DNA from: Candidatus Omnitrophota bacterium | GTDB taxonomy: Bacteria; Omnitrophota; Gorgyraeia; Zapsychrales; Fredricksoniimonadaceae | NCBI GenBank assembly: GCA_903836515.1 | Contig: CAILQW010000005.1 | Coordinates: 3,280 to 67,279, forward strand | Length of the DNA stretch: 64,000 nt | Direction: 5' to 3' | Part shown: positions 47,843-64,000 of the stretch, piece after piece | How positions within the stretch are numbered: position 1 is the stretch's first letter | Layout: each line of letters starts with the position of its first letter | The notes under the pieces: model-generated | Seen by the model: only the letters and a program-made list of their open reading frames with translations | The model's database searches: none | Told to the model about the DNA's origin: nothing | Translations under genes and position numbers: made by a program

Positions 47843-48555
47843 CGCTGCGGATCCTGGTGATCATTCCTGCGTTCAATGAAGCCGGCGCGATCGAAGGGAC
47901 GGTGCGCGAAGTGCTCGCCCAGAAGGTGCCGGTCACCGCCCTGGTGGTCGATGACGGGTCTTCCGACGCAACATCTGCGCGGGCTGCGGCAGCAGGGGCG
48001 CTTGTCGTCCGCCTGCCGTTTAATCTGGGGATCGGCGGGGCGGTGCAAACCGGTTATCGTTATGCCGCGGCGCACGGGTACGACATCGCCGTCCAGGTTG
48101 ACGGCGACGGGCAGCACGACCCTTCTTATCTGGGGGCGGTCATGGCGCCTGTGGCCGATGGGCGTGTCGACATGGCTGTGGGCAGCCGTTTTATCGATGG
48201 ACACGCGGGGTTCCGTTCGTCTGCCTCCCGGCGGATCGGCATCCGGTTTTTGGGCATCCTTATCCGTCTTCTGACGGGACGGCCCGTCACGGATCCGACA
48301 TCGGGATTTCGTGCCTGCGGCAGGAAGTTCATCGGCGTTTTCGCCGCGTATTACCCGACAGATTATCCTGAACCCGAAGCCATGGTCGTGGTGCACCGCC
48401 TGGGCGGGCGCTTTACGGAAGTGCCGGTCGTCATGCGTCCGCGGCGCAGCGGGGTCAGTTCCATTGCCCTGCTCAAGCCGCTGTATTATATGATCAAGGT
48501 CTCGGGGGCCATCCTGTTGCATACGTTAAAGAACAGAAAGGTGTATGAACCATGA
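47839..48555 (+). CDS. GT2 glycosyltransferase, polyprenyl-phosphate sugar synthase-like (DPM1/GtrB-like)
   Basis: N-terminus VIIPAFNEAGAIEGTV...VVDDGSSDAT...FNLGIGGAVQTGYRYA...VQVDGDGQHDP; 238 aa, the size of DPM1-like enzymes. Confidence 0.85.
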   Translation: MTLRILVIIPAFNEAGAIEGTVREVLAQKVPVTALVVDDGSSDATSARAAAAGALVVRLPFNLGIGGAVQTGYRYAAAHGYDIAVQVDGDGQHDPSYLGAVMAPVADGRVDMAVGSRFIDGHAGFRSSASRRIGIRFLGILIRLLTGRPVTDPTSGFRACGRKFIGVFAAYYPTDYPEPEAMVVVHRLGGRFTEVPVVMRPRRSGVSSIALLKPLYYMIKVSGAILLHTLKNRKVYEP

Positions 48556-48908
48556 CCATCCAATGGCTTGCGATCATCCTGGCATCCACGGTGTTTATGC
48601 TCGTGATCGAGCTTGTCCGCCGTGAAAAACTGACTTTCAAGTACGCTTTTGCCTGGCTTTTTCTGGCGGCCCTGGGGGTTGTTTGTTCCGTTTTCCGGGG
48701 GCTTCTTTTTTTTCTTTCCGATCTTTGCGGGTTTGCGCTGGCCAGTAATTTTATTTTCTTTGCCATTCTGTGCGGGTTTGTTTTCCTGAGTCTTCTGATG
48801 ACCGTTTTCCTTTGCCAGCAGAACAGGCGCAATGACCGCATGGTGCAGGCCCTCGGGCTGCTTGAGCTTGAGGTCAGGGGGTTGAAGGAGCGTGTCGATG
48901 GCCGATGA
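48552..48908 (+). CDS. DUF2304-like small membrane protein
   Basis: 118 aa with 3-4 TM helices. Translationally coupled between two GT2 genes, a frequent context for DUF2304. Confidence 0.6.
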   Translation: MTIQWLAIILASTVFMLVIELVRREKLTFKYAFAWLFLAALGVVCSVFRGLLFFLSDLCGFALASNFIFFAILCGFVFLSLLMTVFLCQQNRRNDRMVQALGLLELEVRGLKERVDGR

Positions 48909-49887
48909 CCCGCTGGTGAGCGTGATCATCCCCGCGTACAATGCGCAGGCAACCGTGGCGGCTGCCATCGAGGCCGTTACGGCCCAGCGGTGTACCGGCG
49001 GCGTGGAGCTGGTTGTGGTGGATGATGGGTCCACCGACGCAACCGGAGATATTGTCCGGCGTTATCCCGGCGTTCGCTATATTCGCCAGGATAATGCCGG
49101 TCCGGCGAGTGCGCGTAACCGCGGGGCCGGGGAGGCGCGCGGGGCATTTCTTTTTTTTACGGATGCCGATTGTCGTCCCCAGCCTGGATGGGTGGCGCGG
49201 ATGATGCAAGGGTTTGGCTGTGATGATGTTGCCGCCGTATCGGGAAGCTACGGCATCGTTAACCCCGGTTCCTGGCTGGCACGGATCATCCATGCGGAAA
49301 TCCGTTACCGCCATACCAGGCTCATGCCCCGCCATCCGTTTTTTTTCGGCAGTTACAATGTGGCTGTCAGGCACGATGTCTTTAGGCGCGCAGGCGGATT
49401 TAATGCCGTCTATCGCCGGGCGAGCGGGGAAGATAATGATCTCAGCTACAGGATCGTAGCGGCAGGCGGGCGGATTCTTTTTATGGCCGACGCTTGCGTG
49501 GATCATTATCATCAGGAATCTTTGGGGCGTTATCTTCGGGAGCAGTTCCGCCACGGGTTCTGGCGTGTGAAAATGTACCTGGACCATCCGCAGATGATGG
49601 CGGGGGATGGGTATACCTTCTGGAAAGATATTGTGGAAGTTCCCTGCGTCCTGGGGCACGGGCTGTTGTGGTGGGGCTGGCCCTGGCCCTGGCCCTGGCC
49701 GTTACCGGCGGCGGGATTGTTCTTTCTGTTTGAAGTATTCTTCGGTTCGATGCTGATGCGGTCTTTCGGGCCGGGGGCGGCGGCCGGGGGCGTGATGTGG
49801 CTGCGGGCCTTTGCGCGCACCGCGGGGTTTATTGCCGGCGGGGTTTTCTTTCTTAAAAAGATATTTTTAATGCCCAAGAAAATTTAA
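48892..49887 (+). CDS. GT2 glycosyltransferase with C-terminal membrane segment
   Basis: VSVIIPAYNAQATV...VVDDGSTDAT...FTDADC, with a C-terminal hydrophobic region. Contains a (TGGCCC)n microsatellite encoding WPWPWPWP. Confidence 0.8.
   Translation: MSMADDPLVSVIIPAYNAQATVAAAIEAVTAQRCTGGVELVVVDDGSTDATGDIVRRYPGVRYIRQDNAGPASARNRGAGEARGAFLFFTDADCRPQPGWVARMMQGFGCDDVAAVSGSYGIVNPGSWLARIIHAEIRYRHTRLMPRHPFFFGSYNVAVRHDVFRRAGGFNAVYRRASGEDNDLSYRIVAAGGRILFMADACVDHYHQESLGRYLREQFRHGFWRVKMYLDHPQMMAGDGYTFWKDIVEVPCVLGHGLLWWGWPWPWPWPLPAAGLFFLFEVFFGSMLMRSFGPGAAAGGVMWLRAFARTAGFIAGGVFFLKKIFLMPKKI
49688..49711 (+). repeat. Hexanucleotide microsatellite (TGGCCC) x3 plus TGGCCG inside the GT2 gene
   Basis: Read directly: tggccctggccctggccctggccg encodes W-P-W-P-W-P-W-P. 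Confidence 0.6.
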
Positions 49888-49985
49888 AAAAAACTTGCGG
49901 GGCATTGGCGCTATGTTAATATGAAACTGTTTCAGGATCAACAGGCAACGATTTCAAAAACAGGGAAAATTTTCTAATACCGACG

Positions 49986-50609
49986 ATGGCTAAGAAAGAA
50001 ACTGCAGAAGAAAAGCTGCTGAAAATCATCGAGGCCACCCAAAAGGCCAAAGAGGCCCCTGCATCGGCGACAGCCGCGGCCCCGGCTTCGGTCCCGGTTA
50101 AAAGAGCAGCCTCCCCTAAAATCATCATTTCATTCCGCCAGGTCAACACGGTTCTTGCCGTTGCCGCCCTGGCGGCGTTTATTTTTCTCGTGCATGAGGT
50201 CCAGCTCGGGCTGTCCCGTCTCAACGAAGATGTGAGCCTTTCCGTCGATCTTCCTGCGGTGAAAGACGCGGGAGGCCCTGCGGTGCCCCAGCTGAAAACG
50301 GCCGGCTGGTATCTCGACAAGGTCGCGGCACGCAATATTTTTCAACCTTACGAAAAAAGTTCTGCCGGCGGGCAGGGTGTCCCTTCGGATCGCGCCGCCC
50401 TGCAGACCAAGATAGGCAAGTATAAATTCGTCGGCGTGGCCTGGCTTGACGTCCCGGAATCGGCGACGGTGATGCTGGAGAATATTGCCACGAAAGAAAC
50501 CCGTTTCCTGAAAGAGGGCGACAAGATCGAGGATGTAACGGTCAAGACCATTTACACAGACAGGGCGGTCTTCAGTTACGCAAACGAGGAGATAACGATC
50601 AAGTTATGA
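49986..50609 (+). CDS. PilP/GspC-like secretin-associated inner-membrane protein (tentative)
   Basis: N-terminal charged region, one TM (VLAVAALAAFIFLV) and a C-terminal beta-sandwich-like segment (KYKFVGVAWLD...VMLENIATKETRFLKEGDKIEDVTVKTI...AVF) resembling PilP. Its ATGA stop/start overlaps the secretin gene. Confidence 0.5.
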   Translation: MAKKETAEEKLLKIIEATQKAKEAPASATAAAPASVPVKRAASPKIIISFRQVNTVLAVAALAAFIFLVHEVQLGLSRLNEDVSLSVDLPAVKDAGGPAVPQLKTAGWYLDKVAARNIFQPYEKSSAGGQGVPSDRAALQTKIGKYKFVGVAWLDVPESATVMLENIATKETRFLKEGDKIEDVTVKTIYTDRAVFSYANEEITIKL

Positions 50610-52204
50610 CAAACCACACACTTTCCCCCCGGAAGATCGTCCTGACACTGTTCGCGGGTATGGCGGCGGTGCTCGCCATCGCGGGATTTCGTCCCGCGGC
50701 CGCCGAAGAAGCGCAGACGCCCAGGCCGCTGATCATTTCCCAGCCGAAAGAATCTATCGACGAGCGCATGGCCCGCAAGATCGCCCTGGATGTCCGCGAC
50801 ATGAACATTGTGGATGTCCTCAAGTTTCTCGCCACGAAAGGCGAATTTAACGTGGTCATCAGCCCGTCGGTCGACGGACGCACGACAGTCCTCCTGGACA
50901 ATGTGGCCATCAAGGATGCCCTTGACATTGTGGTGATTTCCAGCCGCCTGGCGTACAGCATCCAGAACAATATTGTGCAGGTCATGACCGCCGCGGAGTA
51001 CGAGGGCATGTTCGGCAAGCAGTTCAGCGACAAGACCGTTGTGGCCACGTTCCGCCTGCAGTACGCCAAGCCGAGCTATGTCCTGGCGGCGCTCGACAAT
51101 ATGAAAAGCAATGTCGGGAAGATCATTATAGATGAAGATACCGGCGCGGTGGTCTTGATCGACACGCCTGATTCCATCGCCAAGATGAAAAAAGTGCTGG
51201 CCGACATTGAACAGCCGCTGGAAACGATCGTGTACAACCTGCAGTACGCCAAGGCGGATGTGGTCGCCGACAAGCTGCGCGCCAGGATCGACGCCAAGTC
51301 CGTGGGGTCGATCACGGCGGACGAGCGGTCGAACCAGCTGGTTGTCCGTGTGTTCCCCGGCCGCAAGGACGAGGTGGAGAAGATCGTCCGGCACCTGGAT
51401 GAGCCGACAAAAGAAGTGTTGATCGAGGCGCGGATCCTTCAGGTTATCTTCAAGCCCAGCTATGACGCAGGCATCGACTGGAATATCGCCTCCAGCGACA
51501 AGGCCAACCCCAACCTGCAGTTCAAGAATATTTACATGAATTCAAGCGGCATGAGCGCGACAGACAATCTTTCCACTACGTTCGGCCAGATTGCGGTGGG
51601 CAATATTAACGCGGACCGTTTCGCTCTTAATATCCGCGCGATGAAGCAGGTCAGCGATACCAAGCTTCTTTCGAATCCCAAGATCATGGCGGTTAACAAC
51701 GAGGAGTCCCGTATCCATATCGGCGATACGGTGCCCTATATCATTTCGACCGTGTCCGGCACCGGGGATAATGCTATCACCAGTGAAGATGTCCGTTTCA
51801 TCGATGTCGGCCTCAAGCTGAATGTGACCCCCACCATCAACGATGACGGGATGATCACCCTGAAACTCCGCCCCGAGATATCTTCTGTTGTTGGCAAACT
51901 TCAGTCGAAAAACAGCGGCGGTATCCCGCAAGTCAACAAGACAGAGGTGGAGACAACCCTTGTTGTCGAGGATGGCACGACCATCATCATGGCCGGCTTG
52001 CGTAAAGACGACAAGATCCACACCAAGACAGGTTTGCCCGTTCTCATGGACCTTCCTTACGTGAGCAAATTATTCAGCCGCGATTCCGACAGCATATCTT
52101 CGTCGGAGATCGTCATCTTCATTACACCGCATATTTTGACCGGCAAGGAAAATTACAAGGCGCCCGACGGGACCATCAAGCCGTCGAAGGCCTATAACAA
52201 GTGA
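50606..52204 (+). CDS. Secretin (GspD/PilQ family outer-membrane channel)
   Basis: Signal peptide, N-domains, and a C-terminal secretin domain (LLSNPKIMAVNNEESRIHIGDTVPY...FIDVGLKLNVTPTINDDGMITLKLRPEISSV...VLMDLPYVSKLFSRDSDSISSSEIVIFITPHIL). Confidence 0.85.
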   Translation: MTNHTLSPRKIVLTLFAGMAAVLAIAGFRPAAAEEAQTPRPLIISQPKESIDERMARKIALDVRDMNIVDVLKFLATKGEFNVVISPSVDGRTTVLLDNVAIKDALDIVVISSRLAYSIQNNIVQVMTAAEYEGMFGKQFSDKTVVATFRLQYAKPSYVLAALDNMKSNVGKIIIDEDTGAVVLIDTPDSIAKMKKVLADIEQPLETIVYNLQYAKADVVADKLRARIDAKSVGSITADERSNQLVVRVFPGRKDEVEKIVRHLDEPTKEVLIEARILQVIFKPSYDAGIDWNIASSDKANPNLQFKNIYMNSSGMSATDNLSTTFGQIAVGNINADRFALNIRAMKQVSDTKLLSNPKIMAVNNEESRIHIGDTVPYIISTVSGTGDNAITSEDVRFIDVGLKLNVTPTINDDGMITLKLRPEISSVVGKLQSKNSGGIPQVNKTEVETTLVVEDGTTIIMAGLRKDDKIHTKTGLPVLMDLPYVSKLFSRDSDSISSSEIVIFITPHILTGKENYKAPDGTIKPSKAYNK

Positions 52205-52232
52205 CCGTTAAATTCTTCGGGAGAGGTTCTCT

Positions 52233-53069
52233 ATGAGGCCAGCAAATTCTTGGAAGTTACCGACCATCTTCGCCGCGGCCGCGGGAGTGTTTTTGTTCTC
52301 GGCCCCTCTTGCTGTTGTTGCCGCTGGAGCCGAGGCCGGGGTCCAGAACGCCCAGGTGGATCCTGAATCCCTGAAGAAGGAGATCGAGCGCCTGAAGAAT
52401 GAAAAAGATTACGAGTCCAAACGGGTCGAGGAAATGCGCAGCGAGCGTGAAGAATTTGTCAAGGAGATCCGCCGTGCCGAGAGCCAGAATACCAAACAGA
52501 CCAAGGAGATCGATGGTCTGAAAACCGCCCTTTCCCAGCAGCAGGAATCGTTTGAGGCCCGGATGAAGAAATTCGAGACCGACCTTAAGGATTCCCAGGA
52601 TCTCGGGCAGAGGAAGGCTTCAGTGCAGCCGGCGCCCGGCAGTCGGCCGCCCAGTGCATCTTTTGCCGTTGAAAAGGCAGCCGGAGAGGTCCTGCAGAAG
52701 GGCGGCGACCTTGATCCCGAGGATGAAAAGTTCAAGGAAGAACTGGCCCGTGCCCATTACAACATGGGTAATGTCTATTACGAAAGAGGCGAGTATCAGC
52801 GTGCTGCTGTCGAATACTACCAGGCCGTGGACCTCATGCCGTATGATGCCGATGCGCATTACAACCTGGCGTATGTCAGCGGGGAATTCATCGGCGACCA
52901 GGATGCGGCGCTGAAGCATTATCAGTGGTACCTTTATTTGAAACCCCTGGCCGAAGACCGTAAACTTGTGGAGGAAAAGATCGTCAGCGCGAAACTGACT
53001 GTCCGAAGCCGTGTTGATTCCAGCCTGGACAAGCCTGAGCTTTCCGGCCATCAAAACGTGGCCAGATAA
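52233..53069 (+). CDS. Secreted coiled-coil plus TPR repeat protein (possible pilotin/secretin accessory)
   Basis: Signal peptide, an E/K-rich coiled coil, then TPR-like helices (ARAHYNMGNVYYERGEYQRAAVEYYQAVDLMPYDADAHYNLAYVS). Confidence 0.65.
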   Translation: MRPANSWKLPTIFAAAAGVFLFSAPLAVVAAGAEAGVQNAQVDPESLKKEIERLKNEKDYESKRVEEMRSEREEFVKEIRRAESQNTKQTKEIDGLKTALSQQQESFEARMKKFETDLKDSQDLGQRKASVQPAPGSRPPSASFAVEKAAGEVLQKGGDLDPEDEKFKEELARAHYNMGNVYYERGEYQRAAVEYYQAVDLMPYDADAHYNLAYVSGEFIGDQDAALKHYQWYLYLKPLAEDRKLVEEKIVSAKLTVRSRVDSSLDKPELSGHQNVAR

Positions 53070-53137
53070 AAGATCCTGATCTTTGTCGGAGCAAGCCTTT
53101 CCTTCTTGAGGAAAGGCGGGTGCACTAAAGGAGTGGT

Positions 53138-54718
53138 ATGAATATCAGAACGTCGGCGATCTTCGGGCTTGCGATTATTGTTGGTATTTTTTCACTTCCC
53201 GCCATTTCCCAGGCTAACGATCTTAAAGTATCCAATGTTCGCCTCGGTCCGCGTGATGCGAACGCAAAAACACTCGCGGTATTTTTCGATCTTTCCTGGC
53301 AGAATTCCTGGCGTAACAAGATCAATCATGATGCTGTCTGGGTGACGGTCCGCCTGCAGGATGCCCAGGCAGGTTCTTCCGAAAAGAAGCTGTGCCGCCT
53401 GTCGGTGAGCGGTCTTAACCCGTCCGGCACTTCTGCCGGTTCCAACAGTGACCTGGCCATCCAGGTACCCGCGGACAAAGCCGGGGCTTTTATCCGCCGT
53501 GTGGCCAATCATGCCACAGCTCCGGTCACAACAACCAGTGCCATGGTAACGGTTAATTACGACGCCTGTGGCCTGAGCGCGGCCAGCGAAGTGTCGGCCA
53601 CGCTGGTTGCCCTTGAAATGGTTTATGTTCCGCGCGGCGCATTTTATGCCGGCGATTATGCGGCGTCTCCCGCCGCGTTTCAGCGGGGCGGGGCGGACAA
53701 TAATCCCTGGCCCATCGCCAGCGAGTCCGCCATCAATGTCAGCGCGGCCTCGGCCAACGGATACTACTATGTTTCTGCCGGGAATGCCGGGGAGATGCCT
53801 TCGGCTGCCGCCTTTACGATCCCTGCCGCCTTCCCCAAGGGGTTTGATGCTTTTTATATGATGAAGTACGAGATCACGGAGGGCCAGTGGGTCGAGTTTG
53901 TCAACTCCCTGTCCTTTCCCGCACGTTCCCGGCGGGATGTGACCAATGCTTCCCACAAGAATTCCGATACGGTCATAGCGCGCGATGCCGTGGCATGCGC
54001 GGGATCGCCGCTTGTGTGCACCACCGACAGGCCTTACCGCGCCATGACCTTCCTGTCATGGCCGGACGTGTGTGCGTTCCTTGACTGGGCCGGGTTGCGC
54101 CCGATGACCGAGCTCGAGTTTGAAAAAGCGGCCCGCGGGCCCTTTCTTCCTGTCAACGGCGAATATGCCTGGGGGACGGCGGATATTCAGCCCGTGTCGG
54201 CTTTGTCCAGCGGGGCTGAAGAAGGCGGCGAACTGTCGGCAACGCCGGGCGCCAACGCGCGTTTCGACGGGATACTGCTTTCCGGGGGAGATGCTGCCGG
54301 CGGTTCTTCCTGTCAGGGCGGGCCGCTGAGAGTCGGTATTTTTGCCACGGATGCCTCGAACCGCATATCTTCCGGTGCCGGTAATTACGGGGCCATGGAA
54401 CTTTCTGGAAATGTCAAGGAGTGGACCGTATCCGTGGGCCATTCTGCCGCGCTGGCCTATACCGGGGTTAATGGTGATGGTGCTTTGACCACAACCACGG
54501 GTTTTGAAGGCAATGCGGATACGGCGTTGTGGCCCGGGATGGATGTGGATGCCAGCCATGGCGTGATACATGCCGCCGGAGCCGGGTTTCGCGGCGGCTC
54601 ATGGGCCGATCCGTCCGCCCGTTTGGCGATTTCGGATCGTACGGAAGCGGCGTCCTCCGCTACTGATGCCGCGGCGACCTATGGCGGTCGCGGTGTCCGT
54701 TCGGCGGAAGGCCAGTAA
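53138..54718 (+). CDS. Secreted FGE-sulfatase (SUMF1/formylglycine-generating enzyme) domain protein, paralog 1
   Basis: Signal peptide, a unique N-terminal domain of about 180 aa, then FGE-domain motifs (LEMVYVPRGAFYAGD; YMMKYEITEGQWVEFV; TFLSWPDVCAFLDWAGLRPMTELEFEKAARG; FRGGSWAD). Confidence 0.8.
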   Translation: MNIRTSAIFGLAIIVGIFSLPAISQANDLKVSNVRLGPRDANAKTLAVFFDLSWQNSWRNKINHDAVWVTVRLQDAQAGSSEKKLCRLSVSGLNPSGTSAGSNSDLAIQVPADKAGAFIRRVANHATAPVTTTSAMVTVNYDACGLSAASEVSATLVALEMVYVPRGAFYAGDYAASPAAFQRGGADNNPWPIASESAINVSAASANGYYYVSAGNAGEMPSAAAFTIPAAFPKGFDAFYMMKYEITEGQWVEFVNSLSFPARSRRDVTNASHKNSDTVIARDAVACAGSPLVCTTDRPYRAMTFLSWPDVCAFLDWAGLRPMTELEFEKAARGPFLPVNGEYAWGTADIQPVSALSSGAEEGGELSATPGANARFDGILLSGGDAAGGSSCQGGPLRVGIFATDASNRISSGAGNYGAMELSGNVKEWTVSVGHSAALAYTGVNGDGALTTTTGFEGNADTALWPGMDVDASHGVIHAAGAGFRGGSWADPSARLAISDRTEAASSATDAAATYGGRGVRSAEGQ

Positions 54719-54750
54719 CACTTTTTCAACCTTTAACCCCGAACAGACCT

Positions 54751-56379
54751 ATGCTAAAAAAAATCATTTTTTCGACCGTTGCCTGCGCATTGATTTCTTT
54801 TCCCGCTTTCGCCAACAACCTCCAGCTCAATCATTTTGATCTCTACGCTTCGGAGGCCTCCGCGCACCGGATGACCTTTACGCTGGATATCCGTCAGGAC
54901 AACAGCTGGCGCAGCGCGGCGTCCCATGATGCGGTGTGGATTTTTATGAAGTACTCCACGGATGCGGGACAGACATGGCATCACGCCAGCATGGGTGGCA
55001 TCGGCCTTAACCCGTCGGGGTTTGCAAGCCCCCAGGGATTCGAGATCCTTGTTCCCGCCGACATGAAAGGGTTCTTTTTTCGCCGGGCCGATATTCTGAC
55101 GGGGGCCCTGGATGCCAAGGCGGTTCATTTTGTGTGGAACTACGCGCAGGACGGTATTTCCGACGATACAGCCAATGCGGCCAATACCCTGACAAAGGTT
55201 TTTGGGCTCGAGATGGTTTATATCCCTGAAGGGGCTTTCTTTGCCGGTGACGGGGCGAGCGCGTCCCCCTTCCGTTTCAAGCAGGGGAGTGCGGATGACA
55301 GCCCGTGGTATATTTCCAGCGAGAATGCGATCACGACGACCAATACCGCTTCGGCTGGATTTTATTATCAGTCGACCGGGGCGTCCGGCGAGAATCTGTC
55401 GGGGGACGTGTTTTTGGTGCCCAACTCTTTTCCCAAGGGATATAAGGCTTTTTACCTGATGAAGTATGAGCTGACCGAGGGGGAGTGGACTGAATTTTTC
55501 AATGCCCTTTCTGCGGCAGCCAAAGCGACCCGCGATATCACAGCCTCCCTCAATGGCGGCAAGAATTCAACCGGTGTGGTTGACCGCAATACGGTGGCCT
55601 GGGATCCCGTTTATCCGTCACGCCCTGCGGTCACGATGCGTCCTTCCCGCGCGATGAGCTATATTTCCTGGCCTGATGCGGCGGCGTATGCGGATTGGGC
55701 CGGCCTGCGCCCCATGACGGAACTTGAGTTTGAAAAGGCGGCGCGGGGGGTGGATGTCAATTCCGTTACAGACGAATTTGCTTGGGGGAGTGCCAGTTAC
55801 AGCGCTGCCACCGCTGACCAGATATTTCCCGCCAATCAGGATGAGAATGGCACCGAAGCGGTTTTGAATGGAGCGGCCAATCTTAACCGGAATGCCCTGG
55901 GATGGACTTCCGGTGACGGGCGTCCCGGCGGGGCGGCGGAAGGTCAGAAGGGTCCTTTGCGTGCCGGAATTTTTGCGGAAAATTCGACAGCCCGCGTGAC
56001 CAGCGGCGGCGGATATTACGGCGCCATGGAACTTTCGGGAAATCTCGCCGAGCCGGCCGTCACGGTGGGCCGCGCGGAAGGCCGCCAGTTTTTAGGCTCC
56101 CACGGGGATGGCGAACTTTCAACGATATCAGGACATGAGGGGAATGCTACCAATGTGGATTGGCCCGGCATTGACGTTTCCGATGCGCGGCGCGGGGTGG
56201 ACAGGACGCTGGGGATCGGGTATCGCGGCGGCGATTTCCAGTCTGCCAGCATCCGCGATTTTCAGGTATCCGCGCGCAGTTTTGCCGCGAAAGATCCTGA
56301 CAGCGCGGGGTTTAAACAGCGCCACGATGCATCTTCCGGCATTTATTATGGCGCGCGCCTGGCCCGCACGGCCCCGTGA
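54751..56379 (+). CDS. Secreted FGE-sulfatase domain protein, paralog 2 (tandem duplicate)
   Basis: Same architecture as paralog 1 and about 45-50% identical by eye (LEMVYIPEGAFFAGD; YLMKYELTEGEWTEFF; SYISWPDAAAYADWAGLRPMTELEFEKAARG; YRGGDF). Confidence 0.8.
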   Translation: MLKKIIFSTVACALISFPAFANNLQLNHFDLYASEASAHRMTFTLDIRQDNSWRSAASHDAVWIFMKYSTDAGQTWHHASMGGIGLNPSGFASPQGFEILVPADMKGFFFRRADILTGALDAKAVHFVWNYAQDGISDDTANAANTLTKVFGLEMVYIPEGAFFAGDGASASPFRFKQGSADDSPWYISSENAITTTNTASAGFYYQSTGASGENLSGDVFLVPNSFPKGYKAFYLMKYELTEGEWTEFFNALSAAAKATRDITASLNGGKNSTGVVDRNTVAWDPVYPSRPAVTMRPSRAMSYISWPDAAAYADWAGLRPMTELEFEKAARGVDVNSVTDEFAWGSASYSAATADQIFPANQDENGTEAVLNGAANLNRNALGWTSGDGRPGGAAEGQKGPLRAGIFAENSTARVTSGGGYYGAMELSGNLAEPAVTVGRAEGRQFLGSHGDGELSTISGHEGNATNVDWPGIDVSDARRGVDRTLGIGYRGGDFQSASIRDFQVSARSFAAKDPDSAGFKQRHDASSGIYYGARLARTAP

Positions 56380-56529
56380 CTATTTTTATCCGACGGAGAT
56401 CTGCTTTTTCCGGTCGTTTTTCTTCAGCCTGGAATCATGGGAAAAAATTCTTAGAATTTCATTGAAGTCCAGTGCGATAATTCAGATAATGTACTCATCG
56501 ATGCCACCGTTTCATAACGATTCCTGGTA

Positions 56530-59500
56530 ATGAGAATAAATAAAAGACTGAAATTTATTCAACAGACATGGTTGCGTTGTGCCGTTACACTTATTATTAA
56601 TATCTTAATAAGTGGGCTGGCGGCAACGTATGCGCATGCCCAGTTTTCCGGCGGCGCGGAGAACGGCAATGCCACAGCCACCATTGGCAGCGATATTTTT
56701 ACAGGCGGCGCCCAGAACGGCACCACCAGCGCCACCTCCGGCAGCAACGGATCCCTTTCCTACGGGGATGCCACCCACATCGCCTTTTTGGTAACCCCTT
56801 CCAGCATCAAGCATGGCAATACCTTCGAACGTCAGCCGGTTGTGGCGGTGTTGGATGCCAGCGGCAATGTTGTGGCGGGCGATAATTCCACCCGCATTTC
56901 TCTCGCCATTCAGAACAATCCCGGTGCCGGAACATTAAACGGCACAACCTCTGTCACGGTTGTCCATGGTCTGGCGGCATTCACAGATCTTGGCATCACG
57001 CGTGCCGGCAATCTTTACACGATCATCGCGCGGGCCGACGGGCTGGGCAGCGCGGTTTCGGATGCCTTTGATGTTTTTGCGGGAACCGGCGCGAAGTTTG
57101 CGGCCATATGGGATGCGTCCCAGACGGCTTATTACATTTACAGCTGGATCGAGACGGACGGCCAGCGGCAGCCCATTACAACATCCAATGCCTATTGCAT
57201 GCCGCATCAAATCTGGAGATCTTCTTCAGGCACCCTTGTTTCCGAGAAAGCGGCCTGGACGCCGACAGTTGATGATGACAAAAACTGGTGTTTCAGCTCC
57301 GGCAGCAAATGGACGCCCAGCAACAGGGACGATTCTTATTTTATTTCTTTCGGGATCAACTGGGATGGCGGTCCTTTCGATGCCTACTCCTCCCTTGAGA
57401 TCACGGCCATGAATATTGCCGGCGTCAACTGGGATGACATTGCCGCGATGAAAGGCAAGATCGATGCGGTCAACTGGCAAAATATCGATGACATGGCCAA
57501 GTCGGATATCAACTGGGATGACGTGGCCCACATGGCTGCTGCGGCCGTGAACTGGGAATACCTGGGCGTCCTGCGTTCCGACATTGTGGACATCAAGAAT
57601 GTCACCGACCAGATGAGCGGGATCAACTGGACCAGTGCCAGGGACATGACCAATGCCGGGATCCAGTGGGCGGATGTCAGCGCCATGACCGCGGCGGGCA
57701 TCAACTGGGATGACCTGTACGCCATGACGCGCCAGGGGGTGAACTGGCAGGATATCGGCATTTTGTCATCGATTGGCATCAACTGGGACGATATCGGTGT
57801 TTTCTCCCAGGCCGCTGTCAACTGGTATGACATTGCCCGGCTCGCCGGGGTGGGTATCAACTGGCAGGATATTTCGGAACTGGCCGGCGCAGGCATCAAC
57901 TGGTACGACCTTGATGCGTTGTCTGTCGCCGGGGTGAACTGGACGGATCTCGCCATCATGACCGGGGCCGGGGTTAACTGGCCCGATCGTGTCAATTGGG
58001 ACAATCTGGCGGAACTCACCACAGCGAATATCAACTGGGACGACCTGACCGTCATGTCCGAGCAGGGCCTGAACTGGTATGACCTTGATGTGCTTACCGA
58101 GGCCGGGATCAACTGGAATGATCTTAACGCGCTGACGGTGGCCGGTATCAATTGGTATGACATCGAAGCCATGAGCACGGGCGGGGTGAACTGGAGTGAT
58201 ATCCAGGTCTTGTCCGCGGCGGGCGTCAACTGGCAGGATGTGAATGTGTTGACCCTTATCGCGGTCAACTGGAGCGATATCCAGGCGATGTCAGCAGCCG
58301 GGGTGAACTGGAATGATGTGGGGGAACTTTCCGCAGCCGGGGTGAACTGGAATGATATGGAGGCTTTGTCGCTCGCCGGGCTCAACTGGTCTGATATGAG
58401 CGCCTTTTCCCAGGCGCAGATCAACTGGAATGACATCCAGGCGTTTACCTCCGCCGGGGTGAACTGGAATGATCTTGGCGCCATGGCGGCCGCGGGTGTT
58501 AACTGGGATGATGTCCAGGCCCTGACCCATGTGGGTGTGAATTGGCAGGATATTGAGGCCTTGGGCGGGGCGGGGATCAACTGGGCCGATATCGGGCTCT
58601 TGTCCGCGCAAGGGGTGAACTGGTCGGATGTGGGATCGTTGACCGCCGCAGGCATCAACTGGGATGATGTGCAGGCCATGACCCGGATCGGCATGAACTG
58701 GTCGGATATGTCCGCTTTGTCTGCCGCCGGTGTCAATTGGTCGGATCTTGCCGGACTTTCCACCCGTGCGGTAAATTGGACGGATATACAGGCGCTGACC
58801 GCAGCAGGCATGAATTGGGACGACCTCCAGGCATTTTCCGCCGCGGGGATCAACTGGCAGGACATTCAGGTCCTGACAACCACTGCGGTCAATTGGGATG
58901 ATATTCAGGTTTTGTCTGCCGCGGGTGTTAATTGGTCGGATATTCAGGCTTTCACTAATATAGGGGTCAATTGGAATGATATCAGCCGGATGGCTGCTGC
59001 CGGTGTGAATTGGGATGATGTTCAGAGTCTTTCTGTAACCGGCGTCAATTGGACGAATCTTGCGGTGATGGGTGCGGCCGGGATCAATTGGGAAGATGTC
59101 AATACCCTGACCACGCGCGGCATTAACTGGGATAATGTCGAGGTGTTTGCCGCCGCCGGGATCAACTGGTCGGATGTGCAGACACTGACAGTCGCCGGTG
59201 TGAACTGGGATGATATTCAGCGGATGAGTATCAGCACCGTCAATTGGGATGATATGGCCGTGTTGTCTTCCACGGGCATCAACTGGGATGATCTTGCCAC
59301 GCTGTCCGGCAAGGGCGTCAATTGGGATGATCTTCTCGCGTTGACGTCCAAGGGTATCAACTGGGATAATCTGGCGGTCATGGCCGCTGACGGGATCAAC
59401 TGGACCGATATCGGGCGCATGGCCGGCGAAGGTATTAATTGGAGTGATATCGCCGTTTTCACGGTGGCTGGTGTCAACTGGGAGGATGTCGCTGTCCTTT

Positions 59501-62500
59501 CGGCTACGGGTGTCAATTGGCATGATATCGGCGTGTTCACGGCCGAGGGGATTAACTGGGGCGATATCCAGGCGTTGGCCGCGGCCGGCGTGAACTGGAC
59601 TGACGTCGGGGCCATGACTGCTGCCGGCGTCAACTGGGACGATATCGTTACCATTTCCCGAAAGGCGGTCAACTGGGATGATGTGACAGCCCTGTCTTCT
59701 GCCGGGGTTAACTGGACGGATATCCAGGAGATGTCCCAGCGCGGCGTCAACTGGGATGATGTTGCTGTCCTGGCCCGCACGGGTGTGAATTGGGACGATA
59801 TCGCGGTGCTGGCGTCGCGCGGCGTGAATTGGGACGATGTTCAGCATTTGGCGGCGTCAAATGTGAATTGGGATGATATTGGCCGACTGACAGTTACAGG
59901 TGTGAACTGGGACGATCTCTACAGCCTGTCGGTCAAGGGGGTCAACTGGGATGATGTCCTTGTCCTGACCAACGCCGGCGTGAACTGGGCGGATATAGGT
60001 GATCTGTCGTCGCGTGGTGTTAATTGGTCCGATATTGCCCGCATGGCCGATGCCGGGATCAACTGGGATGATGCACAGGCCTTGACCGCGGTCGGGGTGA
60101 ATTGGCACGATGTGGCTGTGTTGACAACCGCCGGATTGAACTGGTCGGATGTGAATGCCATGGCCTCAGCGGGTGTTAACTGGGGGGATATCGCCCTCCT
60201 GAGCGCGACGGGGGTCAACTGGGACGATGTCCAGGCCATGGCCGCCAAAGGTGTCAACTGGGATGGGCTGGCAAGCCTCGCGGCCGCTGGGGTCAACTGG
60301 ACGGATATTTCTGTGTTAGCAGCAACCGGAGTGAACTGGTCTGATGTCAATGCCATGACTGTGGCCGGGGTCAATTGGGATAACCTGACATCCATGACCA
60401 CATCCGGGGTGAATTGGGCGGATCTGACAACGCTGACATGGGCGCAGGTCAATTGGGATGATGTGAGTGCGCTTTCCGCGAAAGGTGTCAACTGGACAGA
60501 TCTCGGGGCCATGAGTGCGGCGGGGATAAACTGGCTGGATATCAGCACGTTGGCGGTTGCAGGTGTTAACTGGGATGACCTTCATGTCCTTTCCCAGGGT
60601 GGCATCAACTGGTCTGATATCGAGGTGTGGTCCGCTGCTGGTGTGAACTGGGCTGACATCGGGGCTGTAAGCGTGGCGGGTGTTAACTGGATGGATATCC
60701 AGGTGTTGACCAGCGCAGGTGTCAATTGGAGCGACCTGGAACGATTGGGTGTTAGCGGTGTTAACTGGGATGATCTGGCTGTTCTGGCCGGGACAGGTGT
60801 CAACTGGCTCGATCTTCAGTCGTTCACCATCGCCGGGATCAATTGGAACGACCTCGCGGTCCTTACAGCCAATAATGTGAACTGGGATGATATTACACGT
60901 CTTTCTGCCGCGGGTGTGAACTGGGAAGATGTGGGTACCATGGCGGCCTCCGGTCTCAATTGGGAAGATATTCAGCAAATGACCGCCAAGGGGATTAATT
61001 GGACGGATATCGCCGCGTTCACATCTTCTTCTATTAATTGGGCTGATCTGCAGGTACTGGCGGGGACGGGTGTTAACTGGAATGATATCCAGGTCCTCTC
61101 GCTGCAGGGTGTGAACTGGGTGGACATCGGGGGGCTTGCCGCCGCAGGGATCAACTGGACAGATCTCCAGGCGCTCGCATCAACGGGAGTGAACTGGAGC
61201 GATATCAGCGTCATGTCCGTGCAGGGGGTCAATTGGGATGATATTAATACCCTTTCCACGCGCGGGGTGAACTGGGAGGATGTGGCTGTCCTCGCGGGTA
61301 AAGGTATTAATTGGAATGATATCCAGGCATTGTCGTTGAGCGGCCTTAACTGGTTTGATATGGAGGCCATGACAACAGCGGGCGTGAACTGGGATGATCT
61401 CCAGGCCATGGCCGGCAAAGGCGTGAACTGGGATGACATCCAGGTCCTGAGCGGACGCGGTATCAATTGGGTCGATGTTGATACGCTTTCCAAGGCGGGC
61501 GTTAACTGGTCTGATATCGTGGCGTTGAGCACAACGGGTGTGAATTGGAACGATCTTGAAGTTTTAGCGGCAGCGGGTGTGAACTGGGAGAACCTCCAGT
61601 CACTGGCCGGCACAGGGATTAACTGGGACGATATCCAGGTGCTCTCCGTCCGCGGGATCAACTGGGATGATATTGTGGCCATGTCGCAGGGGGGCGTGAA
61701 CTGGTCGGATATCGGCGCGCTTTCCTTGGCCGGGGTGAATTGGAATGATATGGGGCTGTTGGCGCAGGCCGGTGTGAACTGGGCTGATATTGATGCTATG
61801 ACGACCGTTGCCGTGAACTGGGATAACGTTCAGGCGATGTCCGTGGCAGGGATCAACTGGGCCGATGCCGGTGCCTTAACCACGGCCGGCGTCAACTGGA
61901 CCGACATGAATGTGCTGACCGCTGCGGGAGTTAACTGGGCCGATGTGGGCGCCCTCAGCGCGGCGGGAGTGAACTGGGGCGACATCAACACACTGACCGC
62001 GGCCGGGGTGAATTGGGCGGATGTCAGTGCCTTGGCGGGGGCCGGCATTAATTGGGCAGATGTAGGTTCCTTGAGTGCCGTCGGGGTGAACTGGTTTGAT
62101 GTGAGTGCCCTCACGGTGGCGGGCGTGAACTGGGATAATATTCAGCTGATGTCTGCGGCCGGTGTCAACTGGGATAATGTGACGGTGATGGGGACTTCCG
62201 GTGTGAACTGGGCGGATATTGCGGCCTTGAGTGCGGCAGAGGTCAACTGGTCGGATGTCAATGCGCTTACGGCGGCCGGGGTCAACTGGAGCGATATTGG
62301 CATATTAAGCGATGCCGCTGTGAATTGGGACAATGTGCAGGTGCTTTCCATCGCGGGTGTTAACTGGGACGACCTTAATGTGATATCCCGGACCGGTGTG
62401 AACTGGACGGATATCGGTGCCCTGAGCGAGGCGGGCGTGAACTGGGCCGATGTAAATGCCTTGACGGTGGCGGGCATGAACTGGGACAGCCTGCAGTCAC

Positions 62501-64000
62501 TTTTTAACGCCGGGGTGAATTGGACCGATCTTGATAGCTTAAGTGTTGCCGGCGTCAACTGGGATAACGTCCAGGCCTTGACGACGGCAGGTGTGAACTG
62601 GACGGATGTGAACGCGTTGACCAACACCGGGGTGAACTGGGATGACCTGGTCCAGATGAGCCGCACCGGAGTGAACTGGGAAGACTTGAATCACATGAGC
62701 ACCGTGGGGGTCAACTGGGAAGATTTGAATCTGATGAACAGCCTGGGGATCAACTGGACCGACATGCAGGTTCTGACGACCGCCGGCGTAAATTGGGACA
62801 ATGTGACATCCTTGAGTGTGTCGGGCGTGAACTGGACGGATGTGGAGGCCTTGAGCGCGTCAGGTGTGAATTGGGCCGATATTGGCGCGATGAGCCTGTC
62901 GGGCGTCAATTGGTCGGATATCGGCACGATGGCCGGTGCAGGGGTGAACTGGGCTGACATCGGCACCATGAGCGGCGTCGGTGTTAATTGGGAAGATGTC
63001 GGCGTTCTGGCGCGCACAGGGATCAACTGGACGGATGTGGGTGCCCTGACAGCCGCAGGTGTGAACTGGCTGGATGTCAATGCCCTGACCATGGCCGGCG
63101 TCAACTGGGATAATGTGAATACATTGACAACCGCCGGCGTCAATTGGGCGGATGTCACCTCTTTTTCGGCGGCTGGAATTAACTGGGATGACCTTACCAC
63201 GCTGACGCTTCACGGAGTTAATTGGCAGGATATCGCCGTGATGACCGCCGCCGGCGTGAACTGGGCGGATGTTAACACGTTGACGGGCGCAGGTGTGAAT
63301 TGGGATAACCTTCAGGCGCTGTCAACTGCAGCGGTGAACTGGTCGGATGTGACCCTGCTCACCACAGCGGGCGTGAACTGGTCGGATATGAATGCCCTGA
63401 CCATCAGCGGCGTTAACTGGGATAATCTGCAGGCGATGGCTGCTGCGGGTGTGAACTGGACAGATATGGCCACCTTGACAGTGGCTGGCGTGAACTGGGC
63501 CGATGTGAATGCGTTGACGGCCGCGGGCGTGAACTGGTTGGATATGACCATACTCACGACAACCGCGGTAAACTGGTCTGAGCTGGAAAACCTCACGGTC
63601 GCGGGGGTGAACTGGTCCGATCTTGCTGTTATGGCACAGGCTGGCGTGAACTGGGCGGACGTGAACGCGTTGACCAATGCCGGCGTGAATTGGGATGGCA
63701 TTAATACCTTAAGTCTGGCGGGCGTTAACTGGGATAATATCCAGACCATGTCCGTAGCGGGCGTTAACTGGGATGACCTTAATAGTTTGACCACGACCGG
63801 TGTGAATTGGACGGACATGGCTGTGATGGGGGCCATGGGCGTTAACTGGGCGGATATCAATGTTCTTTCGATGTCAGGGGTTAATTGGAGTGATGTCCAG
63901 ACGCTGACATCCGCCGGGGTCAATTGGGACAACATGCAGGCATTGACCGCGGCCGGGGTGAACTGGTCCGATGTGAATGCGCTTAGCGCCGCGGGCATTA
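56530..64000 (+). CDS. Mega repeat protein, 5' portion (at least 2490 aa in window; continues past the end): signal peptide, Ig-like (Big) domain, then about 170 tandem 13-aa GVNWxDIxALSAA units
   Basis: ATG at 56530 gives MRINKRLKFIQQTWLRCAVTLIINILISGLAATYAHAQ (signal), a G/S/T/N-rich linker, a Big-like beta domain (ATHIAFLVTPSSIKHGNTFERQPVVAVLDASGNVVAGDNSTRISLAI...), then the repeat array. The frame was checked at 57355, 59593 and 63961. The ORF track misses it because no stop lies in the window; minus-strand ORFs 57384-63998 are its antisense shadows. Confidence 0.8.
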   Translation, partial: MRINKRLKFIQQTWLRCAVTLIINILISGLAATYAHAQFSGGAENGNATATIGSDIFTGGAQNGTTSATSGSNGSLSYGDATHIAFLVTPSSIKHGNTFERQPVVAVLDASGNVVAGDNSTRISLAIQNNPGAGTLNGTTSVTVVHGLAAFTDLGITRAGNLYTIIARADGLGSAVSDAFDVFAGTGAKFAAIWDASQTAYYIYSWIETDGQRQPITTSNAYCMPHQIWRSSSGTLVSEKAAWTPTVDDDKNWCFSSGSKWTPSNRDDSYFISFGINWDGGPFDAYSSLEITAMNIAGVNWDDIAAMKGKIDAVNWQNIDDMAKSDINWDDVAHMAAAAVNWEYLGVLRSDIVDIKNVTDQMSGINWTSARDMTNAGIQWADVSAMTAAGINWDDLYAMTRQGVNWQDIGILSSIGINWDDIGVFSQAAVNWYDIARLAGVGINWQDISELAGAGINWYDLDALSVAGVNWTDLAIMTGAGVNWPDRVNWDNLAELTTANINWDDLTVMSEQGLNWYDLDVLTEAGINWNDLNALTVAGINWYDIEAMSTGGVNWSDIQVLSAAGVNWQDVNVLTLIAVNWSDIQAMSAAGVNWNDVGELSAAGVNWNDMEALSLAGLNWSDMSAFSQAQINWNDIQAFTSAGVNWNDLGAMAAAGVNWDDVQALTHVGVNWQDIEALGGAGINWADIGLLSAQGVNWSDVGSLTAAGINWDDVQAMTRIGMNWSDMSALSAAGVNWSDLAGLSTRAVNWTDIQALTAAGMNWDDLQAFSAAGINWQDIQVLTTTAVNWDDIQVLSAAGVNWSDIQAFTNIGVNWNDISRMAAAGVNWDDVQSLSVTGVNWTNLAVMGAAGINWEDVNTLTTRGINWDNVEVFAAAGINWSDVQTLTVAGVNWDDIQRMSISTVNWDDMAVLSSTGINWDDLATLSGKGVNWDDLLALTSKGINWDNLAVMAADGINWTDIGRMAGEGINWSDIAVFTVAGVNWEDVAVLSATGVNWHDIGVFTAEGINWGDIQALAAAGVNWTDVGAMTAAGVNWDDIVTISRKAVNWDDVTALSSAGVNWTDIQEMSQRGVNWDDVAVLARTGVNWDDIAVLASRGVNWDDVQHLAASNVNWDDIGRLTVTGVNWDDLYSLSVKGVNWDDVLVLTNAGVNWADIGDLSSRGVNWSDIARMADAGINWDDAQALTAVGVNWHDVAVLTTAGLNWSDVNAMASAGVNWGDIALLSATGVNWDDVQAMAAKGVNWDGLASLAAAGVNWTDISVLAATGVNWSDVNAMTVAGVNWDNLTSMTTSGVNWADLTTLTWAQVNWDDVSALSAKGVNWTDLGAMSAAGINWLDISTLAVAGVNWDDLHVLSQGGINWSDIEVWSAAGVNWADIGAVSVAGVNWMDIQVLTSAGVNWSDLERLGVSGVNWDDLAVLAGTGVNWLDLQSFTIAGINWNDLAVLTANNVNWDDITRLSAAGVNWEDVGTMAASGLNWEDIQQMTAKGINWTDIAAFTSSSINWADLQVLAGTGVNWNDIQVLSLQGVNWVDIGGLAAAGINWTDLQALASTGVNWSDISVMSVQGVNWDDINTLSTRGVNWEDVAVLAGKGINWNDIQALSLSGLNWFDMEAMTTAGVNWDDLQAMAGKGVNWDDIQVLSGRGINWVDVDTLSKAGVNWSDIVALSTTGVNWNDLEVLAAAGVNWENLQSLAGTGINWDDIQVLSVRGINWDDIVAMSQGGVNWSDIGALSLAGVNWNDMGLLAQAGVNWADIDAMTTVAVNWDNVQAMSVAGINWADAGALTTAGVNWTDMNVLTAAGVNWADVGALSAAGVNWGDINTLTAAGVNWADVSALAGAGINWADVGSLSAVGVNWFDVSALTVAGVNWDNIQLMSAAGVNWDNVTVMGTSGVNWADIAALSAAEVNWSDVNALTAAGVNWSDIGILSDAAVNWDNVQVLSIAGVNWDDLNVISRTGVNWTDIGALSEAGVNWADVNALTVAGMNWDSLQSLFNAGVNWTDLDSLSVAGVNWDNVQALTTAGVNWTDVNALTNTGVNWDDLVQMSRTGVNWEDLNHMSTVGVNWEDLNLMNSLGINWTDMQVLTTAGVNWDNVTSLSVSGVNWTDVEALSASGVNWADIGAMSLSGVNWSDIGTMAGAGVNWADIGTMSGVGVNWEDVGVLARTGINWTDVGALTAAGVNWLDVNALTMAGVNWDNVNTLTTAGVNWADVTSFSAAGINWDDLTTLTLHGVNWQDIAVMTAAGVNWADVNTLTGAGVNWDNLQALSTAAVNWSDVTLLTTAGVNWSDMNALTISGVNWDNLQAMAAAGVNWTDMATLTVAGVNWADVNALTAAGVNWLDMTILTTTAVNWSELENLTVAGVNWSDLAVMAQAGVNWADVNALTNAGVNWDGINTLSLAGVNWDNIQTMSVAGVNWDDLNSLTTTGVNWTDMAVMGAMGVNWADINVLSMSGVNWSDVQTLTSAGVNWDNMQALTAAGVNWSDVNALSAAGI
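57355..64000 (+). repeat. 39-nt tandem repeat array (about 170 copies, very homogeneous), coding
   Basis: Period of 39 nt between successive aactgg cores (for example aactggtatgacattgcccggctcgccggggtgggtatc|aactgg), with rare truncated units such as the 18-nt aactggcccgatcgtgtc. Example run: GINWDDVQAMTRI | GMNWSDMSALSAA | GVNWSDLAGLSTR | AVNWTDIQALTAA. Confidence 0.9.

Follow-up and report, generated by a model that had tools for sequence, protein, structure and literature searches.

A conserved Omnitrophota gene cluster that may encode a type II secretion-like machine together with its own surface fibre

Type II secretion system (T2SS) operons canonically run in the order gspC-D-E-F-G-...-M, and in the pul system of Klebsiella the cargo gene pulA lies adjacent. 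Smaller modules are known in ExeAB/GspAB and in MSHA (MshK-L-M-N), which comprise a secretin, a small bitopic partner, an ExeA-like ATPase and a TPR protein, while PorK/GldK is a protein of FGE fold without FGE chemistry that serves as a structural part of the type IX outer-membrane secretion machine. Here we analyse a stretch of 64,000 nucleotides from a Candidatus Omnitrophota bacterium (contig CAILQW010000005.1; hereafter, the window), in which six co-oriented genes on the + strand, from 49986 to 64000, encode a GspC/PilP-like protein, a secretin, a TPR protein, two paralogs with an FGE-sulfatase domain and a giant repeat protein. Omnitrophota are widespread, uncultured, nano-sized bacteria, and they are thought to be attached to, or to prey on, other cells. 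A preliminary description of the window had seen in these genes a minimal secretin system without ATPase, platform protein or pseudopilin. In relatives, the cluster runs on to genes for GspE/PilB (T2SSE plus MshEN), GspF/PilC and GspG, and it is very likely that the secretin belongs to a complete E/F/G-containing cluster and does not stand alone. The impression of a minimal secretin arose because the window stops inside the giant gene, so that its downstream side is invisible.

Within the phylum, loci for type IVa pili (T4aP) and for non-respiratory F-type ATPases are co-located in every Omnitrophota class, within 10 kb in 57 of 66 contigs; attachment to host cells or motility on them has been proposed as their role, and an analogy with the gliding of Mycoplasma mobile has been raised (Seymour et al. 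2023, PMC10066038). The cluster described here belongs to the same phylum and, like those 'symbiotic' loci, has an atypical F-type gene set adjoining PilB/PilC/pilin-type genes, but its pseudopilin is of the GspG class and its alpha and beta subunits reach the canonical atpA/atpD thresholds. Neither a secretin nor the FGE pair nor the giant with its NW repeats is mentioned in the main text and 11 supplements of PMC10066038. In addition, a T2SS/type IV secretion system-like (Tad-like) locus has been found upstream of Omnitrophota genes for giants of more than 30,000 amino acids (aa) and was read as serving adhesion to prey or host (West-Roberts et al. 2023, 10.1101/2023.11.21.568195). Both there and here, a conserved secretion locus adjoins a gene for a giant surface protein. 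However, the published locus encodes over 10 subunits, among them rcpC and a rotamase, and precedes giants of the multi-transmembrane 'Archaeovorin' or dockerin type, whereas the giant studied here carries a Sec signal, has a single NW-repeat architecture and is embedded in the machine. FGE or sulfatase is not mentioned in 10.1101/2023.11.21.568195, and secretion or pilus genes flanking giants were also noted in 10.64898/2026.06.07.730766. A secretin accompanied by FGE-domain proteins or by a protein with 13-residue NW repeats was not found in the literature, the coverage of which was incomplete, so that this is absence of evidence only. The arrangement had been called undescribed as a unit; this can be maintained for the FGE pair and the NW-repeat giant, but not for the co-location of T4aP and F-type ATPase genes, which was already known. 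From the gene content, the embedded FGE pair and NW-repeat giant appear to be what is added here.

Gene order from the secretin to the pseudopilin genes

Open reading frame (ORF) calling on the window exactly reproduced the six + strand genes and their spacing as first reported, with a 4-nt ATGA overlap followed by gaps of 28, 68, 32 and 150 nt. The secretin, the TPR protein and the two FGE-domain paralogs had been correctly named, as confirmed by Pfam and NCBIfam. The features are the following:

49986..50609, + strand: GspC/PilP-like protein, 207 aa, bitopic in the inner membrane (ORF, Pfam, orthologs)
50606..52204, + strand: secretin, 532 aa (Pfam Secretin and Secretin_N)
52233..53069, + strand: coiled-coil and TPR protein, 278 aa, secreted (TPR_11, 2.4e-10)
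53138..54718, + strand: FGE-fold paralog 1, 526 aa (Pfam FGE-sulfatase, 2.3e-14)
54751..56379, + strand: FGE-fold paralog 2, 542 aa (Pfam FGE-sulfatase, 2e-12)
56530..57399, + strand: N-terminus of the giant protein, signal peptide and two immunoglobulin (Ig)-like domains (AlphaFold2, Ig/FN3 matches)
57400..64000, + strand: repeat region of the giant protein, at least 169 units of 13 aa (repeat analysis; the window end cuts the frame)

From its ATG at 56530, the giant frame stays open for 2490 codons until the window ends. Each of the 20 public contigs from the window organism terminates in this gene, and blastn revealed no overlap between its 3' end in this organism and 32 downstream metagenome contigs. 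In positions 1-50 kb of the window, no gene for a T2SS or type IV pilus (T4P) ATPase, platform protein or pilin was detected with Pfam and NCBIfam. The statement that such genes are missing within 15 kb on either side therefore holds upstream, but it cannot be made for the downstream side, since the window ends in the giant gene.

The best 120 database relatives of the secretin were 60-91% identical and, where named, came almost all from Candidatus Omnitrophota metagenome-assembled genomes (MAGs), with a few carrying other bin labels. Around five secretin homologs (62-90% identical) the order was identical, namely gcv, lipB, S41, GT2 (family 2 glycosyltransferase), DUF2304, GT2, small protein, secretin, TPR, FGE, FGE and a very large gene whose product shares its N-terminal domain and 13-residue NW repeats with the window giant. 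This order is carried by 6 contigs reached by way of the secretin. A genome scan with one genome per GTDB species yielded 80 loci, in which six-frame ORFs were labelled by phmmer; presence was counted only at loci with enough sequence, and the breadth of the scan is stated as secretin identity (54-91%), not as taxonomic ranks. The gene order was kept in 79 of the 80 species-representative loci, so it is no product of chance. The small GspC-like protein was present in 78 of 79 loci, the TPR protein in 68 of 69, FGE in 54 of 62 and the giant gene in 44 of 45. Conservation of the order had been proposed as a check, and across Omnitrophota the secretin, TPR, FGE-pair and giant genes indeed lie adjacent and co-oriented, in what is among the most conserved multi-gene arrangements found around an Omnitrophota secretin. 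The sole exception, also for the giant gene, was locus L052 (9896-11521), where an orphan secretin copy lies between a heptosyltransferase and a malic enzyme gene, with no GspC-like, TPR, FGE or giant neighbours. The MAG in question also holds a canonical locus (L026), and the L052 secretin may be a true paralog or else stem from contamination of the bin.

The FGE pair is missing in a clade that includes Candidatus Aceula, in which the secretin, TPR and giant genes are still adjacent. At locus L062, three paralogous secreted proteins of about 190 aa fill the FGE slot (13016-14839) and the giant (14864-18838) begins with a Laminin_G_3 domain; therefore, the content of the accessory slot that separates TPR protein and giant varies. 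Insertions and rearrangements were found at the lipB/S41 and DUF2304/GT2b (second GT2) junctions and none between the secretin and the giant gene. In 60 of the 80 species, the contig stops within 9.9 kb downstream of the secretin. Thus, in most MAGs the secretin looks orphaned because the NW repeats break assemblies and hide what follows, and an apparent 'orphan' secretin can be an artefact of assemblies breaking in a repetitive gene.

The downstream side is visible in contig L087, because its giant gene encodes only 868 aa. This single contig carries, all co-oriented, the genes for the GspC-like protein, secretin, TPR protein, FGE, FGE, giant, a membrane-anchored protein of 435 aa that we call p435, seven F-type ATPase proteins, T2SSE/MshEN, T2SSF and a prepilin. 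Independently, L062 joins the secretin through to atpA, the first ATPase gene. The p435 gene starts 3 nt past the giant gene in L087 and always lies directly between the giant gene and that for ATPase alpha; its product (L087 12610-13917; L088-L117) has 430-460 aa, a cleavable signal peptide, the mature N-terminus DIYINVMAVNG and a C-terminal transmembrane helix. The F-type set (L087 13933-19336; L088-L117) consists of alpha, epsilon, c, a 75-aa c-like hairpin (with Glu), a b/delta fusion, gamma and beta; this is an atypical gene order, and the cluster lacks a gene for the a subunit. A metagenome scan with p435 as probe gave 32 contigs. An NW-repeat gene lies upstream in 25 of 27 of them, alpha is present in 26/26, beta in 15/15, T2SSE in 14/14 and T2SSF in 12/13, and in 32/32 all labelled genes are on one strand.

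GspE, GspF and GspG occur in the same cluster in L087 and 14 further contigs, that is, in relatives only. Pfam matches of the downstream genes are strong (T2SSE 6e-128 plus MshEN, T2SSF 3e-56, T2SSG 1.9e-32), and the pilin clears the GspG equivalog cut-off (151.9 vs 88.85); a second N_methyl prepilin is also present. GspF is the best model for the platform protein, at 324 and below the cut-off of 424. The ATPase of L109 scores about equally on GspE (558 vs cut-off 630) and PilB (TIGR02538, 568 vs 675.65), both below cut-off. No PilT was found in the downstream loci within reachable flanks. As for the F-type subunits of L109, alpha scores 508.8 on atpA (cut-off 484.45) and 400.6 on MMOB1660 (cut-off 600), and beta scores 536.4 on atpD (cut-off 462.85) and 428.6 on MMOB1670 (cut-off 850); the best PDB matches of the alpha subunit are ordinary F1 alpha subunits. 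Several downstream loci also have a Peptidase_MA_2 protein between GspF and the GspG pseudopilin (L109 19697-20524).

The gspC-D-E-F-G order is thus kept in relatives, with 10-25 kb inserted between D and E. With the canonical T2SS operon, the cluster shares the order and orientation of C, D, E, F and G, a secretin with N domains, a GspC-like partner that is probably of the HR type, a GspG above cut-off and an adjacent gene for putative Sec cargo. It differs from that operon in the additional genes that separate D from E (TPR, FGE pair, giant, p435 and the seven F-type ATPase genes), in a GspC-like protein without PDZ domain and in a secretin, GspE and GspF that remain under the equivalog cut-offs.

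The encoded proteins

The GspC-like protein has a conserved cytoplasmic N-terminus (MAKKETAEQKLLKIIE), a single transmembrane helix and a probable periplasmic HR-type domain. The window's own protein gives weak matches (T2SSB 0.006; GspC_delta 5e-4), and Pfam detects no PDZ domain in it. Pfam T2SSC (PF11356, the GspC HR domain) is matched by 15 of 25 orthologs, at best with 5.9e-8, so the initial label 'PilP/GspC-like' is fair; the ortholog of L005 reaches 24.8 bits, with a cut-off of 27.

The secretin consists of a signal peptide, a weak N0/STN domain, two Secretin_N domains and a C-terminal secretin domain. It belongs to the Secretin superfamily (PF00263; 3e-46, 157.6 bits, cut-off 27.5) and matches Secretin_N with 1.8e-21 (76.5 bits, cut-off 28.2), and among PDB sequences it matches GspD and PilQ with 1e-33 to 1e-36. 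STN, the N0 domain by which secretins dock GspC/PilP, reaches 20.4 bits, under the cut-off of 28.4, and the PilQ N0 fragment 4ar0 aligns to residues 56-129 (1.2e-7). No AMIN domain, S domain or lipobox was seen. The protein stays under the curated NCBIfam cut-offs for PilQ (TIGR02515, 247.8/284.35), GspD (TIGR02517, 222.9/351.35) and MshL (173.7/250). Assignment to the PilQ/type IVa subfamily was rejected, as TIGR02515 is not reached, AMIN is missing and the upstream genes are glycosyltransferases instead of pilMNO; the GspD equivalog was likewise rejected on its score. The TPR protein may assist the secretin as an assembly or accessory factor; its matches to PilW, Tgl and PrsT are weak and below threshold.

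The two FGE paralogs are 42% identical and share one architecture, with signal-peptide-like N-termini, an N-terminal beta-sandwich and a degenerate FGE-sulfatase domain. Their signal peptides end SQA/ND and AFA/NN, and neither has a lipobox. Where named, the best matches of paralog 1, too, are almost all from Candidatus Omnitrophota MAGs. Both proteins belong to the FGE-sulfatase fold domain (PF03781; 54.1 and 47.8 bits, cut-off 23.3), with the alignment confined to the central 50-110 residues; matches to FGEs in the PDB span residues 292-347. FGE/SUMF1 is defined by two catalytic copper-binding cysteines in an RGGS-x-x-C-x-x-x-x-C motif. At the site of this catalytic-Cys motif, the window paralogs have RGGSWADPSARLAISDR and RGGDFQSASIRDFQVSAR; WADPSARLAISDR comes after the C-terminal RGGS motif, and the other paralog is likewise cysteine-free there. 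An alignment of 27 sequences of the FGE family contains no conserved cysteine past position 294. Since both catalytic cysteines are absent, FGE-type catalysis has been lost, and, judged by these residues, the paralogs are not FGE-type enzymes.

The FGE fold resembles that of C-type lectins, and by analogy the paralogs may have a binding or scaffolding role. PorK/GldK offers a precedent for structural use of the fold, and there is a weak GldK match. However, the window proteins have no lipoprotein cysteine, carry an extra N-terminal beta-sandwich and accompany another machine; membership in PorK/GldK was rejected, the match to TIGR03525 being 22 bits (cut-off 350) over 21 residues. An AlphaFold2 model of paralog 1 built on the 27-sequence alignment had a mean predicted local distance difference test score (pLDDT) of 52.7, with the N-terminal beta-sandwich alone confident, and Foldseek against the PDB gave nothing below E=0.1. 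With this null result and a model of low confidence, no structural statement on likeness to PorK/GldK is made.

The giant protein starts with a signal peptide (about aa 1-37) followed by some 290 non-repeat residues with two Ig-like beta-sandwich domains. The repeat unit is G-[VI]-N-W-x-D-[ILV]-x-x-[LM]-[ST]-x-A, with a period of 13 aa (39 nt), and N-W is invariant across 169 units. The repeat protein first reported is real, but its unit is 13 residues and not about 20. The repeats are acidic and free of Cys and Pro. As the units are only 68-84% alike in DNA, the array must be old and held by selection on the protein. The giant has at least 2718 aa in the window organism (public contigs), and across loci its size ranges from 0.9 to about 5 thousand aa. 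Complete orthologs end, after the repeats, in a coiled coil of about 180 aa; the L087 giant comprises two Ig-like domains, some 38 repeats and a tail of coiled coil with the last residues VVVKAWYESE. In an AlphaFold2 model of the first 521 mature residues, the Ig-like domains reached pLDDT 70-89, and the repeats were modelled as one short helix per 13 residues at a pLDDT of about 40. Foldseek with this N-terminal model returned generic Ig/FN3 matches only.

All named NW-repeat proteins that were checked belong to Omnitrophota, and the Ig-like domain is also found in many other huge proteins. Pfam and NCBIfam identified no autotransporter, TPS, RTX or sorting-signal domain in the giant, and no family for its N- and C-termini, for p435 or for the 190-aa paralogs of L062. 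A representative search with residues 1-700 was discarded, swamped by unrelated proteins with many copies of Ig-like domains. Two matches on the NW repeats were set aside as probable artefacts: Lysostaphin_N (PF25533; 133 bits, cut-off 60, residues about 700-1100), attributable to period 13 or composition, and CW_7 (56.8 bits, with no single passing stretch). A dockerin- or EF-hand-like reading of the V-N-x-x-D-[IL]-x-x-L core was considered but is not claimed, as Pfam gave no dockerin match. Two short 'complete' giants (P0243 and P0251) were excluded, as L126 looks repeat-collapsed and L127 is an unrelated Ig-domain protein.

Readings of the cluster

The best reading of the locus is that it forms the outer-membrane-proximal half of a phylum-wide, co-oriented Omnitrophota supercluster, which would encode a T2SS-like machine of the type IV filament class. 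This reading builds on the gene content, order, orientation and conservation described above and on the loss of the FGE active-site cysteines. That such a machine has a dedicated cargo or surface fibre encoded in its own cluster is given a rough probability of 0.5. The giant and the FGE-fold proteins would cross the inner membrane by Sec, and the pseudopilus machine would either push them through the secretin or mount them at it. The proposed cargo is a long, acidic fibre of repeats with N-terminal Ig-like domains; together with lectin-like accessory proteins, it could make an adhesive surface fibre by which these nano-sized bacteria attach to other cells. Signal peptides on the giant, the FGE proteins, the TPR protein and p435 are consistent with this route, and the secretin is the only outer-membrane conduit encoded with the giant. 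Concrete candidates can thus be named for the surface fibre (the NW-repeat giant), the export route (the T2SS-like machine) and the accessory proteins (the dead FGE-fold pair). The proposal in the preliminary description that the secretin module, FGE pair and giant form a conserved secretion/surface-fibre unit is strengthened, with the genes lying inside the machine's array. The opposite arrangement envisaged there, in which the secretin would adjoin a full T4P/T2SS operon and the FGE and repeat genes would be unlinked to it, was encountered by half: relatives have the full machine, with the FGE and repeat genes inside it.

Several observations weigh against a T2SS-like machine with its own fibre. 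The genes gcvT/H/P1/P2 and lipB, plainly unrelated housekeeping, lie inside the syntenic block; therefore, conserved adjacency alone is no proof of shared function. The F-type alpha and beta subunits clear ordinary AtpA/AtpD cut-offs and could simply be those of an ordinary cellular ATP synthase. Transcription of the giant gene may be separate in the window's clade, where a promoter-like element of its own follows a weak hairpin. GspL, GspM, the minor pseudopilins H-K and a prepilin peptidase were not seen in the reachable flanks, which end at the second N_methyl prepilin. Furthermore, the E/F/G half is known from relatives alone, every assembly of the window organism breaking in the repeats, and confidence is low in the structures modelled for the FGE domain and the repeats.

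Some of these observations would fit an ordinary type IVa pilus or T2SS, in which the GspC-like protein, secretin and TPR protein work with E/F/G in adhesion, twitching, DNA uptake or enzyme secretion, and the FGE, giant, p435 and ATP synthase genes are unrelated passengers of a rigid gene order. The gcv and lipB genes in the block cannot be parts of a secretion system, and passengers would also be compatible with the atpA/atpD scores, with the promoter-like element of the giant gene in the window's clade and with an FGE pair that is dispensable in one clade. However, the inserted genes lie within the C-D...E-F-G order and not beside it, the gaps around the giant gene are 3-40 nt in many species, and rearrangements occur at lipB/S41 and DUF2304/GT2b, never between the secretin and the giant. 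Apart from those for the ATPase, moreover, every inserted gene encodes a secreted or membrane protein for which no other export route is visible, and we consider the passenger reading unlikely.

A more far-reaching possibility is that the secretin/pseudopilus machine, the F-type ATPase without a-subunit, p435 and the giant fibre form one apparatus for attachment or motility, in which a rotary ATPase would assist an adhesive or motile fibre mounted on the secretin, with which ultra-small Omnitrophota would hold on to host cells or move on them, and the dead FGE-fold proteins would be lectin-like or ring-forming subunits. In its favour are the strict succession of giant, p435, alpha, epsilon, c, c', b/delta, gamma, beta and GspE across 32 contigs, the atypical gene order with two c-like hairpins and no a-subunit gene, and the published alpha-subunit phylogeny and co-location statistics (PMC10066038). 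Mycoplasma mobile gliding, in which F1-like ATPases drive giant legs on the surface, provides the analogy, with its surface proteins of multi-thousand residues (Gli349/Gli521) and a non-standard F-type gene set. In contrast to Mycoplasma mobile, Omnitrophota are diderm and have a secretin. The models for the gliding ATPase stay below cut-off (400 vs 600; 429 vs 850), whereas canonical atpA/atpD pass and ordinary F1 alpha subunits are the best PDB matches. Such an integrated apparatus is quite improbable; if it is true that the embedded F-type ATPase belongs to the machine, a rotary ATPase coupled with a type IV filament system would be without precedent.

That the GspC/PilP-like protein, the secretin and the TPR protein make up a minimal channel able to export or anchor the giant fibre alone, as the lack of ATPase, platform and pseudopilin genes in the 50 kb 5' of the secretin had suggested, is hardly credible, since GspE/PilB, GspF/PilC and GspG lie in the same cluster in every relative with sequence reaching far enough.

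Intergenic elements and upstream neighbours

Counts from generic promoter and terminator scans did not exceed those of shuffles, and terminator-like sites in the region are no more numerous than expected by chance; only two promoter-like sites that are also conserved between species were kept, which are listed with the hairpin between them:

49895..49922, + strand: promoter-like element TTGCGG, 16 nt, TGtTAATAT (extended -10), 5' of the GspC-like gene (8-species alignment)
56394..56412, + strand: weak terminator-like hairpin 3' of FGE2 (partly conserved CCGxCGG core)
56462..56490, + strand: promoter-like element TTGAAG, 17 nt, GATAAT, 5' of the giant gene (ATTGAA and ATAAT invariant in 8 close relatives)

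In the 8-species alignment, ATGTTAATAT is invariant at 49895-49922 within otherwise diverged intergenic DNA, which suggests that this element functions as a promoter. In the window's clade, the genes for the GspC-like protein, the secretin, the TPR protein and the FGE pair probably form one transcription unit and another begins with the giant gene. Many other species have a gap of just 9-40 nt between FGE2 and the giant, so that there is no room for a promoter of the giant gene. With Rfam, neither a riboswitch nor any other known RNA was detected (whole window at gathering thresholds; FGE2-giant gap at E<=1).

Upstream of the six genes and on the same + strand lie, in order, gcvT/H/P1/P2, lipB and the conserved neighbours listed here:

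46556..49887, + strand: S41 C-terminal processing peptidase, GT2 (PpgS-like), DUF2304 and second GT2 (Pfam/NCBIfam, conserved)

Among the loci of the genome scan, the second GT2 was present in 69 of 70 and S41 in 62 of 64. The GT2 and DUF2304 pair (47839-48908) resembles the mycobacterial pair PpgS/Rv3632, a polyprenyl-phosphate sugar synthase; the match to NCBIfam PpgS is 1.5e-25, below the cut-off. A role of this pair in periplasmic glycosylation of the adjoining secreted proteins is conceivable, and the S41/GT2/DUF2304/GT2 neighbours may belong to the same envelope programme.

An AAA_22 ATPase similar to ExeA/GspA is encoded just 5' of the GspC-like gene in 27 of 73 species (AAA_22 5.7e-24); its best curated match, the PEP-CTERM-associated ATPase TIGR03015, scores 190 with a cut-off of 324.5. 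Together with the secretin, the small bitopic partner and the TPR protein, this ATPase recalls the ExeAB/GspAB and MSHA modules. The likeness has its limits: no peptidoglycan-binding domain was noted, and the ATPase is absent from the window's locus and its clade, where the GT2b gene is directly followed by the GspC-like gene. Species with the AAA_22 gene (L004 8488-9390; L005 8436-9350) also have a methyltransferase gene between DUF2304 and GT2b (L005 6680-7351), which the window lacks.

Further upstream in the window lie two more very large genes, an AsmA-like gene and housekeeping genes. The first large gene (17964-27839, + strand) encodes a 3291-aa protein with weak DUF11/Big_6 matches, and the second (27913-33273, + strand) a 1786-aa protein with many TPR_2 repeats. 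They are followed by the AsmA/YhdP-like gene at 33295-35112 and by a gene (38266-41535) for a 1089-aa protein with no Pfam match, which has counterparts of 1086-1087 aa at the same place 5' of gcvT in relatives (L001, L002).

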